Assembly: GCA_051439505.1 (NCBI GenBank)
Contig: JBFRWI010000167.1
Span: 1-49,682, forward strand
Length of the DNA stretch: 49,682 nucleotides
Direction: 5' to 3'
Source of the DNA: Hormoscilla sp.
GTDB taxonomy: Bacteria > Cyanobacteriota > Cyanobacteriia > Cyanobacteriales > Desertifilaceae
In this document: positions 26,026 through 30,910 of the stretch, piece by piece
How the letters are laid out: each line of letters starts with the position of its first letter
How positions within the stretch are numbered: the stretch's first letter is position 1
Notes under the pieces: model-generated
Told to the model about the DNA's origin: nothing
Database searches by the model: none
What the model saw: the letters and a program-made list of their open reading frames with translations, nothing else
Translations under genes and position numbers: made by a program

Positions 26026-26123
26026 TTGAGATTGGTTAGTGGTTAGTGGTTAGTGGTTAGTGGACAACCCACAACTGACAACTGACTTGGTGGGCGGTGC
26101 CCACCCTACTAACTGACAAATAA

Positions 26124-27167
26124 CTAAAATGTAGATAGGGATTCGGGAGGTGCGAGATCTCGACCAGCTACGACACCGTTCTGACTTGATTTTAAGCCTG
26201 GGATGCTACTGCGATCGCCCTCCTTTTCAGATGCATTTAACTGAGAGGGAAGAAAGGAGGAGGGTTCGTAGATAACCTCTTTTGGTGATTGCTGGGATAT
26301 CCAGGCAAGTCCGCCTACAGCGCCAGCGACAAGAGCTGTATAGCTGAGGTATAAGTGGGTAGGGGTGAGGTAAAATCGAGATGCTTTGTATTCAGGTTGA
26401 TAGGCCGATGGTAACAATACAGATTTGAGCGGTTCTGGTGCTGGCAAGGCGGCGACGAGGGCCGCACCATCCAACCCTAAGACATCTCCCAGGCGGCGAA
26501 TAAAACCTCGGACGTAGACAGCTTCTGGCAATTCTTCGACCCGACCAGCTTCAAGTGCTTCTATGTGGTGTAGTGGTATATGTGTCTGAGATTGTAGTTG
26601 CGTCAGATTGAGCGATCGGGCTATGCGTGCAAGTCGCAGTTGTTCGCCTATCTGACGCAGACATTCTGATCGTTGTTGAACTGTTGGGGCTGTTAACTCA
26701 CTCTGATTAGACTTTTGGCTGGGCCCAGTTGTTGCTTGATGCTGGCCTTTGACAGCTGTAGGTTTAACAGGGTAATCTGTTGACTTAACTGCTGGGTTGG
26801 GTATGGCTCTATGTATTCCCTGTCTCCCAGGGAGGGGTACCTCCGAAGCGCTAGTCGCACCACAAGGAGGCGACAACTGCCATGCTTTTGTCTGACTGGC
26901 TGTTACAGCCCCTGCTGCTTGATATTGGCTGACAAATTGCTGCAACGCTAACCAGATCGCTTCTCGGGCCACGGCTTTTAACAGCATCTGACTGCTGTCC
27001 GCTGGGACTCCTTGGATTGTCTGTAAGTTAGCTAAGGTTCTGCGATATACTTGAGAGTGATAGAGATCTGCCTCGATCTGACTCATAAGTCTGCGCAATT
27101 CTTCTGAAGATATCTCCAGAGTAGCGCTGGCAGTAGCAGTTAAAGAGGATGCTGAGTTCAGTTTCAC
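26124..27167 (-). CDS. RodZ-like HTH (HTH_25) membrane-anchored protein with long N-terminal extension
   Basis: IGEQLRLAR...LEAG..EELPEAVYVRGFIRR, followed by a hydrophobic helix (LYLSYTALVAGAVGGLAW). Confidence 0.8.
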   Translation of the reverse strand: MKLNSASSLTATASATLEISSEELRRLMSQIEADLYHSQVYRRTLANLQTIQGVPADSSQMLLKAVAREAIWLALQQFVSQYQAAGAVTASQTKAWQLSPPCGATSASEVPLPGRQGIHRAIPNPAVKSTDYPVKPTAVKGQHQATTGPSQKSNQSELTAPTVQQRSECLRQIGEQLRLARIARSLNLTQLQSQTHIPLHHIEALEAGRVEELPEAVYVRGFIRRLGDVLGLDGAALVAALPAPEPLKSVLLPSAYQPEYKASRFYLTPTHLYLSYTALVAGAVGGLAWISQQSPKEVIYEPSSFLPSQLNASEKEGDRSSIPGLKSSQNGVVAGRDLAPPESLSTF

Positions 27168-27434
27168 GATCTTATTGTTTGGCGAATGGAATAAAACAGT
27201 AACCGCAAGGACTCTCCTGGGTCTGACTTCTACCCCAGTCGATCTCCGGACTGTTTAAATACTTTATTCTGGTGAATTATCGTGAGTTCCGGATCTCTCT
27301 GTCAGTTATGCTGGCGGTCATGAATACTCTTTTCCCCAGCAGGCGTAGCCGTGTTTTAGCAGCTCAATTGAGTAGATGTGCCAGAATCTCCGGAGAGTTC
27401 GGCTAACTGAGTCGGAGCAGATGCGCGGCATAAT

Positions 27435-29939
27435 TTACAGAATTAAATTTTCTGGGGCAGCGACCTTTACCTGGGCCGGACGTAATACCCGATCGCCCAA
27501 TTTGTAACCCGGTCTAATTTCGGCAATTATTGTTCCTTGTGGATATTCATCCGTTGATTGGGTCATCACCACCTCGTGGAGATTGGCATCGAATATTTGA
27601 CCCTTAGTCTTGATCGCCTCCACGCCTATTTCTTGTAAAACACCCAATAAACGATGATAAATTAATTGATAGCTATTTTGGATAGCCGCTTCTCCCTTAG
27701 TCTGGATAGGAATTTGGGCCTTGGCTAATTCAAACAGCTCTAACTCTGCCAGCAGCTTCAACACGATTTCGACTTTAACTCGTTGTTCGCCCTCCTTTTC
27801 CTGATGTTTTAACCGCTTAATTAGTTCGTTCTTTTCCCATTCTCCTAAATGACTGTAGGTTTCAGTATTATCATCTCTAGATAGGAATCGATCTTGTGCT
27901 ACCTGAGTCCTAACTACAACTTGCTTTGTCTGTAGACTCTTAACATGTTGTTCCAGTTCTGCGTGAGACTGTTGTAGTCGCTCAATCTGTTGTTCCAGTT
28001 CCGCTTTGGACTGTTGCAGTACCTTAACCTGTTGTTCTAGTTCTGCGTGAGACTGTTGAAGAGCATCGTCCGATCGCCTCCGGGACTGTCGGATTTTAAT
28101 GAGACGGAGTCCTGCTAATAGGGTATCATTGCCGAGAACTCGCTTGACTTCTTCGAGAGTTGTCTGCCCTTGACGCACTAAGTCAAGGCTATAATCTAAG
28201 AGTGTTTTCATCCCCGCATCTGCGGCAACTTGGTTAATTTCTGATGCTGTGGCACCTTGACTGATTAAAGCGGAGATCTGCCGATCTACAGGCAGCACTT
28301 GATAAATGCTCGCCATTGTGGTATAACCGCTTCCCTGACAAACTCGACATAGCTCGCCTCTGCCTTTAGCTGCGGAAATTTCAGCTCTCGGCAGGCTTTT
28401 GGCCCGATAAAAGGTTAAGTCGCTACTGGCAGATAAGCCAAAACGATTAATCTGTTGTTTGCTGGGAGTATAAGGAATACGACAGGCCGGACAAACCCGG
28501 CGCACCAAACCGTGATGGATGCCGCCAAGTAGTGAGTCAAGCGTAAAAATTATTTCTCGGTCAATGCCCTGGGCGACTAAATGAGCAATAGCACTGGCGG
28601 TATCGGCAGTAGCTAAAGAGATCAGGACTAAGCGATTTGCCGATGCTGCGATCGCAGTTTGGGCAGCATCTCGATCTGGAATTCGATCGACAAAGATGAT
28701 GTCTGGTTCTTCCCGGACAACCTGCTGCCAGATGCTGGCAAAGTTAATCCCCAGTTCGGGCCGCATTTCTATTTGCTGAACTCCTGGTATCACGCATGCG
28801 ATCGCCTCTTCTATGGTAAATATCTTCAATCCCTGCTGCTGCTTTTCTCGCAGGAGATTATAGATGAAGGCGGATTTACTCGAACCGGTTGTACTGGTCA
28901 GCAAAATTAACCCCGCAGAATGGCTGGCAAGCGATCGCACAGAGGAGCAGCTGTCCGGATCGGTGAGGGAATGTTCCAGACTCAGGTGGCAGGTAGAACA
29001 GTCGAAAATTCGTAGCAGTACCCTTTCCCCGTAGTCGCTGGGCATAATGTTAACGTGAAAGTCAAATTTCTTTCTCCGGAAGCTGCGGCGAATGCGACCT
29101 GTTTGGGGTATGCTTTGTTGGCTGATATCGAGCTGGGCGCTGAGTTTGAACTGAGCGATCAGATCTGGTATAATCTGCTTCGGTAAGGCGCTCATGGCCG
29201 ATCGCATCGCCCCCTGCTTGCCCAAGCGAATTCGCAAACCGTCTGATTGAGGTAAGATGTGAATCTCAGAAGCTTTCTCTGTCAGGGATAACAGTAAAAT
29301 CCGATTGACAGCTTTGTCAACTTGGGGCCGATCGGATTGTTTGATCGCCCGCTCGATGTCTAGGTATTCATCGGTGACTGTTTGGGAACTGCTGGGGAGT
29401 AATATTTCCGTTCCCTTGTCAACTTCGGGTTCGGCGTAATGGCAAATGAGTTGCTCGTAGTCTTCTGGGGTAATGGCGATTCTCTCCATACCCAAGCGGA
29501 GGGGTTGCAAGATGCGGTGCAGGTCCCCTAGGGCTTCGGAATTATTTGGATCTACCATTGCTATGAGGATCGAGGGGGGAGAATCCCTTTTCTCCAGGGG
29601 GATCAATCCTTCGCGACGGCAGATATCTATGGGGACGATGGAGTCAATCAGTTCTTTGACTCGTGAGATATTAATTTTTGCTACCTGTGCTGCTTCCAGG
29701 ACCTCAACGCCGGAGAGTTGCTTGAGTTCCTGCTGCAGCTGTTGTTGGTACTCCTGCAACAGCTGCGTTGGCACTGCATTCATCAACTCCAGTATTTCTC
29801 GAAGAGTCCGACCAGATCTGCGACTTTCCATCAGGGCCTGTTGCATCTGGTCGGCGCTGACGTGGCCGGACTGAATTAGCTTGTTGGCGAAGGGCGAAAA
29901 ATTATTGTCAGATCGATCTGGTGCGTAATTTGCCATCAC
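27435..29939 (-). CDS. PilB/GspE-like degenerate ATPase fused to coiled coil and C-terminal GrpE domain
   Basis: PilB-like N-terminus SPFANKLIQSGHV; ASEIHILP, LDISQQSIPQTGRI, YGERVLLRI; Zn motif RRVCPAC...CRVCQGSGY; GrpE head FDANLHEVV...GTIIAEIRPGYKLGDRVLRPAQVKVA. Confidence 0.88.
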   Translation of the reverse strand: MMANYAPDRSDNNFSPFANKLIQSGHVSADQMQQALMESRRSGRTLREILELMNAVPTQLLQEYQQQLQQELKQLSGVEVLEAAQVAKINISRVKELIDSIVPIDICRREGLIPLEKRDSPPSILIAMVDPNNSEALGDLHRILQPLRLGMERIAITPEDYEQLICHYAEPEVDKGTEILLPSSSQTVTDEYLDIERAIKQSDRPQVDKAVNRILLLSLTEKASEIHILPQSDGLRIRLGKQGAMRSAMSALPKQIIPDLIAQFKLSAQLDISQQSIPQTGRIRRSFRRKKFDFHVNIMPSDYGERVLLRIFDCSTCHLSLEHSLTDPDSCSSVRSLASHSAGLILLTSTTGSSKSAFIYNLLREKQQQGLKIFTIEEAIACVIPGVQQIEMRPELGINFASIWQQVVREEPDIIFVDRIPDRDAAQTAIAASANRLVLISLATADTASAIAHLVAQGIDREIIFTLDSLLGGIHHGLVRRVCPACRIPYTPSKQQINRFGLSASSDLTFYRAKSLPRAEISAAKGRGELCRVCQGSGYTTMASIYQVLPVDRQISALISQGATASEINQVAADAGMKTLLDYSLDLVRQGQTTLEEVKRVLGNDTLLAGLRLIKIRQSRRRSDDALQQSHAELEQQVKVLQQSKAELEQQIERLQQSHAELEQHVKSLQTKQVVVRTQVAQDRFLSRDDNTETYSHLGEWEKNELIKRLKHQEKEGEQRVKVEIVLKLLAELELFELAKAQIPIQTKGEAAIQNSYQLIYHRLLGVLQEIGVEAIKTKGQIFDANLHEVVMTQSTDEYPQGTIIAEIRPGYKLGDRVLRPAQVKVAAPENLIL

Positions 29940-29945
29940 TGCCGT

Positions 29946-30270
29946 CTAGGAAGCTGTTATTAGGTCAATCTCCACATCCCCGCTCACCGGCAAGACCTAC
30001 CACTCCAATGGTGGTGCGGCAAGGAAGGCATTCGTTGCTGAAGTAAGAGGCGTAGATTTCGTTCATTATATCAAAATAGCAGATGTCGGTGATGAACACC
30101 CTCGCCATGACCGCGCGATCGCGTAGCGAGAAATCGCAGCTAGTGCCTGCCTGTCCTAAGATTAACTGAAGGTTATCCATACGCGATCGCACTTGCTGGT
30201 CGATCGGGGAGGCCACCACATCTCCTGTTTTGGGGTCTGACGCCAGATGGCCCGTGACGAACAGTTCTCC
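29946..30270 (-). pseudogene. RidA/YjgF family pseudogene (5' end replaced by repeats, frameshift near 3' end)
   Basis: GELFVTGHLASDPKTG...QQVR..MDNL..IL...RVFITD...MNEIYASYF...PCRTTIGVVGLAG; a shifted frame gives DVEIDLITAS*. The upstream part of the ORF-track call is translated 21-bp repeat. Confidence 0.82.
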
Positions 30271-30910
30271 GTTCGTAATTCTCAGTTCTCCATTCGTAAT
30301 TCTCCGTTCTCCGTTCGAGGGAAAGTAAATCTCCCTTATTTGGGAATCCTCAAAAGACAATAAAAGCAGAAGAGGAGAGAGCAGAGCAAACTCAAACTCA
30401 AACATAAGAGTTCCTATCTCAATTGACAACAATACCAGATCCCAACTTATCCTAGATATCGCCACCCTGGCCGAAGCTGAAGTTTGCTATAGGGGGCTTT
30501 CCCAATAGAGAATTGCGCTCATGAGAGAATTTTGAATTGTTTATGGGGTGGCCGCTCAAATGAGGCGATCGGGAATAGTCAAGCAATCAAATCAGAACGA
30601 GCCATATTGTCTGATGCGATCGCCTTCGACGCCAACACCTAGTGATTGCAGGCAACTCACATCCCCGGGCAGTTCCGCTCCCCCGAAGAGTACAACATAT
30701 GGCCAAGACGAGCAGCTATGAGGTAAGGCGAGGCGATCGCCGCAGCCAGAATCGCTGTATCCTTTACCCTGCAAGCGTTTTAGCGAATACTCAGGCTCCT
30801 CAAAAATCTCCTCAAACGCTTTACAGGAGGGCATGCATAAGGTAAGATCAAATATGTCGGCCTTGCTTGAAGTTCATTTATCGGTTGCCACTAAAGTAGA
30901 TAACACCATA

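Follow-up and report, generated by a model that had tools for sequence, protein, structure and literature searches.

Structure and authenticity of the fusion gene

The 49,682-nucleotide contig JBFRWI010000167.1 of the Hormoscilla sp. assembly GCA_051439505.1 (hereafter the window) carries, on the minus strand at 27435–29939, a gene that joins a PilB1-like ATPase to a GrpE head through a coiled coil. The gene is a single open reading frame (ORF) of 834 amino acids (aa) from a GTG start, or 833 aa from the next ATG; the plus strand has stops throughout the same interval. Pfam identified MshEN at aa 94–170 (E 6.5e-7), T2SSE at aa 202–600 (E 6.2e-58) and GrpE at aa 643–827 (E 4.2e-26), all exceeding their curated cut-offs. 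These matches bear out a preliminary description made from the sequence alone, which had proposed one 834-aa ORF with a PilB-type front and a GrpE head, and every motif quoted there is present in the ORF. For the NCBIfam PilB, GspE and GrpE models shown, each score fell under its cut-off, including TIGR02538 (276.3 vs 675.65 bits) and NF010741 (106 vs 184). The AlphaFold model, used for secondary structure only given its modest quality (pLDDT 61.7, pTM 0.38, N1 domain <50), contains a motor core, a helix at residues 603–675, a loop and the GrpE head; Foldseek searches with it returned PilF/PilB as best matches (E 2.8e-32).

Read from its N-terminus, the protein begins with a PilB1-type helical clip (~aa 10–70; 29730–29912, converted from residue numbers), the part that ATPase-less relatives retain, followed by the MshEN/GSPII N1 domain (29430–29660) and a T2SSE motor core comprising N2D and CTD (28140–29336), supported by Pfam, Foldseek and the model. 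A predicted long helix or coiled coil (27912–28130) then stands at the place of the Hfq-binding zinc-finger tail of PilB1. It is built from a 42-bp (14-aa) repeat present in 2.8 copies at 27942–28058, the copy number of which varies between relatives. The GrpE head (27459–27842) consists of a short upper helix from which the greater part of the basic DnaK patch is missing, a four-helix bundle and a beta-domain ending in RPAQVKVA.

Three further full-length fusions with 76–85% identity to the window's copy occur in other assemblies, giving four intact frames in this clade. Among Logan contigs, one from run X3 spans the ATPase–linker junction (27885–28289) with no differences, and run X5, from a different study, holds a ~93–94% identical relative on two contigs (26097–28055 and 28018–29960) with the same neighbours as the window and about one linker repeat lost in frame. 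Each of these pieces covers part of the gene, none of those listed covers the whole, and runs X1–X3 may represent the source study. A misassembly or misjoin was rejected on the strength of the fusions in other assemblies and of the X3 and X5 contigs. The guanine–cytosine content of the gene (0.485) is the same as that of the genome (0.482).

The ATPase half has lost its catalytic residues

Relative to cyanobacterial PilB1 (slr0063-type; TIGR02538/PF00437), the fusion shares the N-terminal clip, MshEN, the N2D–CTD fold and the internal zinc site, so that the T2SSE fold, N1 domain and tetracysteine of a PilB extension ATPase are all present, but its catalytic Glu, its His box and one of the two arginine fingers are gone, and its coiled coil and GrpE head replace the Hfq-binding tail. 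We compared 48 non-identical fusion cores, excluding tandem ATPases and cores <300 or >520 aa, with 169 canonical PilB1 sequences; the cores are not independent, since most are Chamaesiphon-type. Residue roles were taken from PMC5424180 and mapped by alignment with an inferred 20-residue tag offset.

The Glu following Walker B (EPDIIFVDRIPD, 28674–28709; E395 position) is Arg in all four members of the window's clade and is retained in 4/48 fusions, compared with 169/169 canonical proteins. Both His of the His box (28611–28640) are replaced in the window by Arg and Ala, and H413 and H420, invariant in canonical PilB1, persist in 1/48 and 0/48 fusions, respectively. At the arginine-finger site corresponding to R271 of Geobacter metallireducens PilB, the window has His (FDFHVN, 29049–29066), and no fusion core keeps the Arg (0/48 vs 169/169); the second finger, R286, is retained in the window's clade and in 6/48 fusions overall. 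The zinc site is kept: the tetracysteine CPAC…CRVC (28338–28493) is complete in all 48 cores, as in all 169 canonical sequences. The earlier reading of a lost His box beside an intact zinc site was thus confirmed by alignment.

Two of the proposed lesions held only in part. Walker A (TSTTGSSKS, 28872–28898) shows two Gly-to-Ser changes, but its Lys is present in 4/4 of the clade and in 39/48 fusions (169/169 canonical). Likewise, the Asp box (TIEEAIAC, 28794–28817) has lost its second, Mg-binding Glu (E357) in the window's copy, whereas the other three clade members keep it; across the family, 9/48 fusions retain it, against 169/169 canonical proteins. The window's copy also shows further losses (first Asp-box changes, RxRxG) that its three nearest relatives do not share. 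The claim that only catalytic residues had been lost did not survive, since the fusion is 42% identical to the PilB1 of its own genome and has therefore diverged throughout. The Cys4 tail, reported to bind Hfq in PilB1 (PMC4390875), occurs in 159/159 canonical proteins and 0/48 fusions, its place being occupied by the GrpE head.

Lys, E357, catalytic Glu and H420 occur together in none of the 48 cores. Judged by its residues, the front of the fusion is a pseudo-ATPase, as had been supposed. Since the window's clade keeps the Walker A Lys, R286 and the inter-chain Arg R455 (4/4), nucleotide binding and subunit packing may still be possible.

The GrpE half is also degenerate

Fused heads (n = 29) were compared with canonical GrpE (n = 57), with Mycobacterium tuberculosis positions mapped by alignment. 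Like GrpE (PF01025; NF010741), they share the four-helix bundle and beta-domain, and the window's head carries the conserved HE, GY and VxV. In the beta-domain core, His and Glu are found in 29/29 heads, Leu-Arg-x-Ala in 28/29 and both Val of VxV in 27/29. What is missing is most of the RxxADFxNxRKR helix patch, together with the free N-terminal tail of GrpE. Basic residues occur at R64 in 4/29 fused heads (55/57 canonical), at R73 in none (56/57), and at K74, R75 and R78 in 7/29, 20/29 and 4/29, each against 57/57; Asn at N71 is found in 5/29 vs 57/57. The window's head keeps two of these six positions (K74 and R75), and in one lineage (P0170, P0178, P0192, P0200, P0209) the helix at the patch site is not recognisable. 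Conversely, Gln in RxAQV is characteristic of the fused heads (27/29 vs 1/57). In M. tuberculosis GrpE, mutating the basic long-helix patch nearly abolished DnaK binding and exchange, and a beta-sheet patch mutant had little effect (PMC10803776). By sequence, then, the GrpE half appears degenerate too, most of the basic DnaK-binding patch being gone in all 29 fused heads compared.

These losses bear on whether the protein could be a self-sufficient, motor-tethered exchange factor whose heads would pair with one another and free ADP from DnaK1 at the base of the pilus. We regard this as unlikely, and the proposal that the GrpE part, taken as intact in the preliminary description, works as an exchange factor is correspondingly weakened: the patch whose mutation nearly abolished exchange (PMC10803776) is mostly gone, and in one fusion lineage the helix itself cannot be made out. 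What speaks for it is the preserved beta-domain core, including the VxV Val residues reported as necessary for GrpE activity (PMC6987454), the K74 and R75 positions of the window's copy, and the HTH (helix–turn–helix)–GrpE protein All4144 of Anabaena PCC 7120, reported in a preprint to have exchange activity (10.1101/2025.04.14.648684). All4144 resembles the fusion in joining a GrpE domain to another domain, but it differs in having HTH as the partner, in its reported activity on DnaK and in the absence of any reported pilus link. The window's genome also encodes two HTH–GrpE-like proteins of 218 aa (L167:1991–2647) and 575 aa (L163:2811–4538) on contigs C125 and C173; the longer has a repeat coiled coil, and the shorter may resemble All4144.

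Selection on the fusion

The ratio of nonsynonymous to synonymous substitution rates (dN/dS) was computed with a Nei–Gojobori script for 12 of 13 named Chamaesiphon fusion loci (L083 being too distant), the resulting pairs not being independent. The median was 0.197 for the ATPase (63/66 pairs with dS ≤2; maximum 0.328) and 0.074 for the GrpE head (48/66 pairs; maximum 0.128). A single pair from a second lineage gave 0.16 for the ATPase (0.085/0.522) and 0.11 for the head (0.109/0.978). The fusion is therefore under purifying selection in two lineages other than the window's. The window's clade is represented by proteins only, two metagenome scans having returned no orthologue DNA, and within it the head is the most conserved part (84–92% identity, compared with 62–74% for the linker). 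The GrpE head is thus the constant and most constrained part of the family. The preliminary argument for selection rather than decay accordingly holds for two other lineages (dN/dS 0.16–0.20 for the ATPase and 0.07–0.11 for the head).

That the window's copy is itself a decaying relic of a once-functional gene is very unlikely. Its private losses, the same-genus genomes without a fusion (see below) and the dN/dS not computable for this lineage would leave room for decay, but there are four intact full-length frames at 76–85% identity with the head best conserved, and the only change among the gene indels listed for the X5 relative is in frame.

Distribution and architectures of the family

The architecture is not unique to one assembly. 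A GrpE-part search among proteins of 458–1460 aa gave 15 matches, all T2SSE plus GrpE, and a profile search of 1.84 billion representatives found 12 fusion clusters (50% identity) among the best 150. Fusions occur in 16/27 genomes of the genus Chamaesiphon and 1/12 of its sister genus, and one is encoded by the cultured strain Chamaesiphon minutus PCC 6605 (WP_015159935.1). Of 400 further genomes in the order, 12 showed an additional GrpE-like match, comprising nine of the Chamaesiphon-type family, two further fusions (G476, G568) and one TPR–CHAT–GrpE protein, although this survey missed at least one known carrier (G444). Another 400 genomes from the class gave an additional match in 14 cases, each of which was re-searched; the nine read further comprise four intact fusions (G704, G708, G720, G737), one broken fusion (G985), two clip–GrpE and two FHA–GrpE proteins. 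A whole-fusion profile run on 401 genomes of the phylum recovered only G000 and G045, a weak survey because at most three candidates were scored per genome. Canonical pilB1 and grpE were retained in 10/10 carriers checked. The family is scattered across several cyanobacterial orders and is apparently old enough for such a spread. Databases label its members plainly as GrpE or PilB, so that counts of both are inflated.

Front parts vary considerably. Chamaesiphon-type fusions have the motor core without the N1 domain. Two relatives (G930, L247:67–1578; G1003, L248:847–2418) consist of a PilB1 N-terminal clip, a spacer, a coiled coil and a GrpE head without any ATPase; the clip matches their own PilB1 at E 1.1e-5 and the window ORF at ~4e-4, and, because their heads nest within the fusion clade (99/98), the ATPase was lost. 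Two proteins of ~1000 aa (G704, L250:3763–6900; G737, L252:3413–6541) instead carry an HPD-less DnaJ3-like region ahead of a PilB1-like N1 domain, dead ATPase and GrpE head. The HPD-less J region of G704 is homologous (E 1e-17) to a J+TPR protein of the window's genome; J+TPR is the published architecture of Sll1384/DnaJ3 (PMC9948308, PMC12288463), and by this architecture the protein is a putative DnaJ3 orthologue. Beyond pilus-related fronts, a TPR–CHAT (caspase-like) protein of 1175 aa (G615, L196:1052–4579) has a coiled coil and then an RPAQV-type GrpE head at its C-terminus, and FHA–GrpE fusions occur in G732 (L245:984–2099) and G881 (L246:696–1739), the helix motif being kept in G881 and parted from the head by an insert in G732.

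A separate group, the DPW family, comprises dead PilB paralogues that lack GrpE but carry a coiled coil and an acidic tail with DPW as its last residues, of which 0/23 keep the catalytic set (L032:4535–6811, L033:4653–6350, L034:4929–6503, L037:4058–6022, L038:4328–6187 and ~18 further proteins). These may correspond to the extra PilB homologue PilB2 (slr0079), the function of which is reported as unknown (PMC4390875, PMC7690421); P0321, a dead paralogue of a Synechocystis strain with the DPW tail, may be PilB2-like. PilB2 resembles the fusion in being a divergent extra PilB copy without the C-terminal zinc finger and dispensable for motility, and differs in that published descriptions of it mention no GrpE domain. 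A further set of ~1000-aa proteins (P0155–P0165, P0169, P0173, P0175, P0177) has two tandem T2SSE ATPase domains, one member with T2SSF domains ahead.

Such dead paralogues, sister-like to the fusions, make it conceivable that the fusion acts as a motor brake, its dead subunits joining PilB1 hexamers or occupying PilC and its GrpE head serving only as a dimerisation handle. Retention of the motor fold, the zinc site (48/48) and the Walker A Lys (39/48) while catalysis was lost, together with purifying selection on the ATPase, would fit this. We nonetheless consider it improbable: derived members dropped the whole ATPase and kept the head, which also weakens the dominant-negative motor regulator initially suggested; moreover, the head is more constrained than the ATPase, and a coiled coil already lies ahead of it.

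Origin of the two halves

The window's genome retains canonical genes for both halves, as anticipated. On contig C130, a pilB1 encoding 667 aa with intact motifs lies within a pilB–pilT–pilC operon, head-to-head with grpE–dnaK–dnaJ; the fusion lies outside this operon and, over 124 aa, shares 50% identity with the resident GrpE. As in several other cyanobacteria, pilB1 and the chaperone genes are thus neighbours, but in this orientation a simple deletion could not yield the fusion. A recent fusion of the resident pilB1 and grpE is disfavoured by the head-to-head order and because neither half groups with its own copy.

Trees against outgroups placed both halves within cyanobacteria (100/100 and 100/99) and outside the canonical cyanobacterial groups (99/97 and 99/96), although long-branch pull may draw fusions away from canonical genes. 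The head tree united four fusion lineages, the window's among them, at 97/96; all fused heads came together at only 81/69, with the CHAT-fused head inside. ATPase trees left the fusions unresolved, a single group of them appearing in 41% of bootstrap trees, and joined them to the DPW family with Shimodaira–Hasegawa (SH) support of 94, unstarred. An approximately unbiased (AU) test of the window's fused head grouped with GrpE of its own genus was borderline (p 0.047), the group having been named after the tree was seen. A single origin of all fusions is possible, the RxAQV Gln being weakened as proof of one by its presence in the CHAT fusion.

A candidate adaptor between the pilus motor and the chaperone cycle

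A connection between DnaK and the pilus motor, as first proposed for this gene, has already been published. Two-hybrid assays in Nostoc punctiforme showed DnaK1 binding PilB, Hfq, DnaJ3 and GrpE (PMC9239167), and in Synechococcus elongatus UTEX 3055 DnaK1 binds PilB, with grpE as the only exchange factor and apparently an essential one (PMC13710413). DnaK1, DnaJ3 and GrpE act at active type IV pilus motors, and grpE could not be fully deleted (PMC9239167, PMC13710413). The fusion family involves the same partners (reviewed in PMC12288463) joined in one chain, a PilB-like part with GrpE and, in G704 and G737, a DnaJ3-like J region, whereas the published components are separate, active proteins, and the accessible text of these reports mentions no fusion or dead adaptor.

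We accordingly weigh the fusion as an enzymatically dead adaptor that would bring the chaperone cycle of GrpE and DnaK1 to the type IV pilus motor, an interpretation to which we give about an even chance. It draws on the published action of DnaK1, DnaJ3 and GrpE at the motor, on the GrpE head as the constant and most constrained part, and on the convergence of variable front parts (PilB1 clip, dead ATPase, DnaJ3-like J) on one hub. The head also sits where the Hfq-binding tail was, canonical pilB1 and grpE are kept in all carriers checked (10/10), GrpE paralogues can heterodimerise, as reported for CGE1/2 of Arabidopsis (PMC6987454), and R455 is kept throughout the window's clade. Under this adaptor model, the front would serve as an address, docking at the motor by way of its N1 clip, its N2D–CTD packing surface or both, and perhaps binding ATP without hydrolysis. 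The head would dimerise; its likeliest partner would be the essential canonical GrpE of the cell, which could supply the missing DnaK contacts in an asymmetric 2:1 GrpE–DnaK complex. Nucleotide exchange on motor-bound DnaK1 might then be set locally, the cycle being either sped or damped, tuning motility or slime secretion.

Several observations weigh against the adaptor. The gene is dispensable: it was not found in 4/4 same-genus genomes (94–97% complete) or in 11/27 Chamaesiphon genomes, some of them incomplete. No pilus or chaperone neighbour is conserved across 14 fusion loci, and none is shared with the window. One copy (G985, L249:1840–3127) is split into two reading frames, of 180 and 251 aa, and has lost most of its core, reflecting either a decaying gene or an assembly error. 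R455 is retained in only 10/48 fusion cores, with Lys in 18, and the heterodimer is purely conjectural. The importance of the basic patch is carried over from one species, M. tuberculosis; for this reason, and because an atypical HTH–GrpE is reported active, the fused head may have weak exchange activity. Finally, patch-poor heads occur on non-pilus proteins (TPR–CHAT of G615, FHA of G732), so the fused head may be a general module.

The last point leads to a chaperone-side regulator unrelated to pili, in which a patch-less head would bind and damp canonical GrpE or DnaK and the PilB part would be an inherited scaffold or a nucleotide/zinc sensor. Comparable heads are attached to CHAT and FHA proteins and more distant ones to HTH proteins, and the chromosomal neighbours are not pilus genes, all of which is compatible with it; we nevertheless think it quite improbable, given that the retained front parts are PilB1- and DnaJ3-like and that an ATPase-less member keeps the PilB1 clip.

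Returning to the adaptor, a more general form is possible, though we would not expect it to hold: the fusions would be double pseudo-enzymes, their dead GrpE half heterodimerising with the single essential GrpE and their dead PilB1 or DnaJ3 address modules pinning DnaK1 exchange to the pilus motor, so as to form a portable tag giving a shared exchange factor a local job. If so, the head, found also on CHAT and FHA proteins, would be a general means of targeting the bacterial Hsp70 cycle. The fusion bears on two gaps stated in the published work, namely what retains DnaK1 at the motor and how it cycles there, and how three DnaKs with distinct roles share a single essential GrpE (PMC9239167, PMC13710413). 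As a dispensable gene that joins the published partners and occurs in a cultured strain, it gives an entry point to these questions. The family is also a case of two dead enzymes maintained by selection.

A search of full-text literature, which excludes most subscription journals and supplements, found no published PilB–GrpE fusion; the supplements of PMC9239167, which tabulate DnaK, DnaJ and GrpE homologues across cyanobacteria, may bear on it. The fusion is assembled from known parts, and their joining is apparently undescribed.

Flanking regions

No RNA dataset was among those listed as containing the fusion, and a promoter/terminator scan gave chance-level results (6 matches vs 5.7 expected). 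Near two other fusions only (G568, L195:6441–7724; G476, L183:3507–4712) lies an STN-like (secretin N-terminal) gene, a weak, below-cut-off match.

In the window, the fusion is adjoined upstream by a Rid/L-PSP-like ORF (29965–30465, minus strand; under the NCBIfam cut-off) and downstream by an HTH_25 (RodZ-like) gene (26124–27167, minus strand). Comparison of the window with L158, L159, L160 and L161 showed that, in three same-genus genomes, sequence matching ~26590 is joined to ~29955. This junction leaves the HTH gene without its 5′ half in these three genomes, which lack the fusion; the window and G005 have the gene complete. The 26590–29955 gap is therefore a deletion there, and the lost piece may or may not have held a fusion. 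In G002, the match to the window ends already at 26217, with large unrelated ORFs beyond. Short repeats lie at both neighbouring genes. A 21-bp tandem repeat (30262–30317) lies in the 5′ part of the Rid/L-PSP-like ORF, and a TGGTTAG heptamer in 4.4 copies (26033–26063) lies at the end of the HTH gene; the many loose contig ends there mark it as a dispersed repeat.

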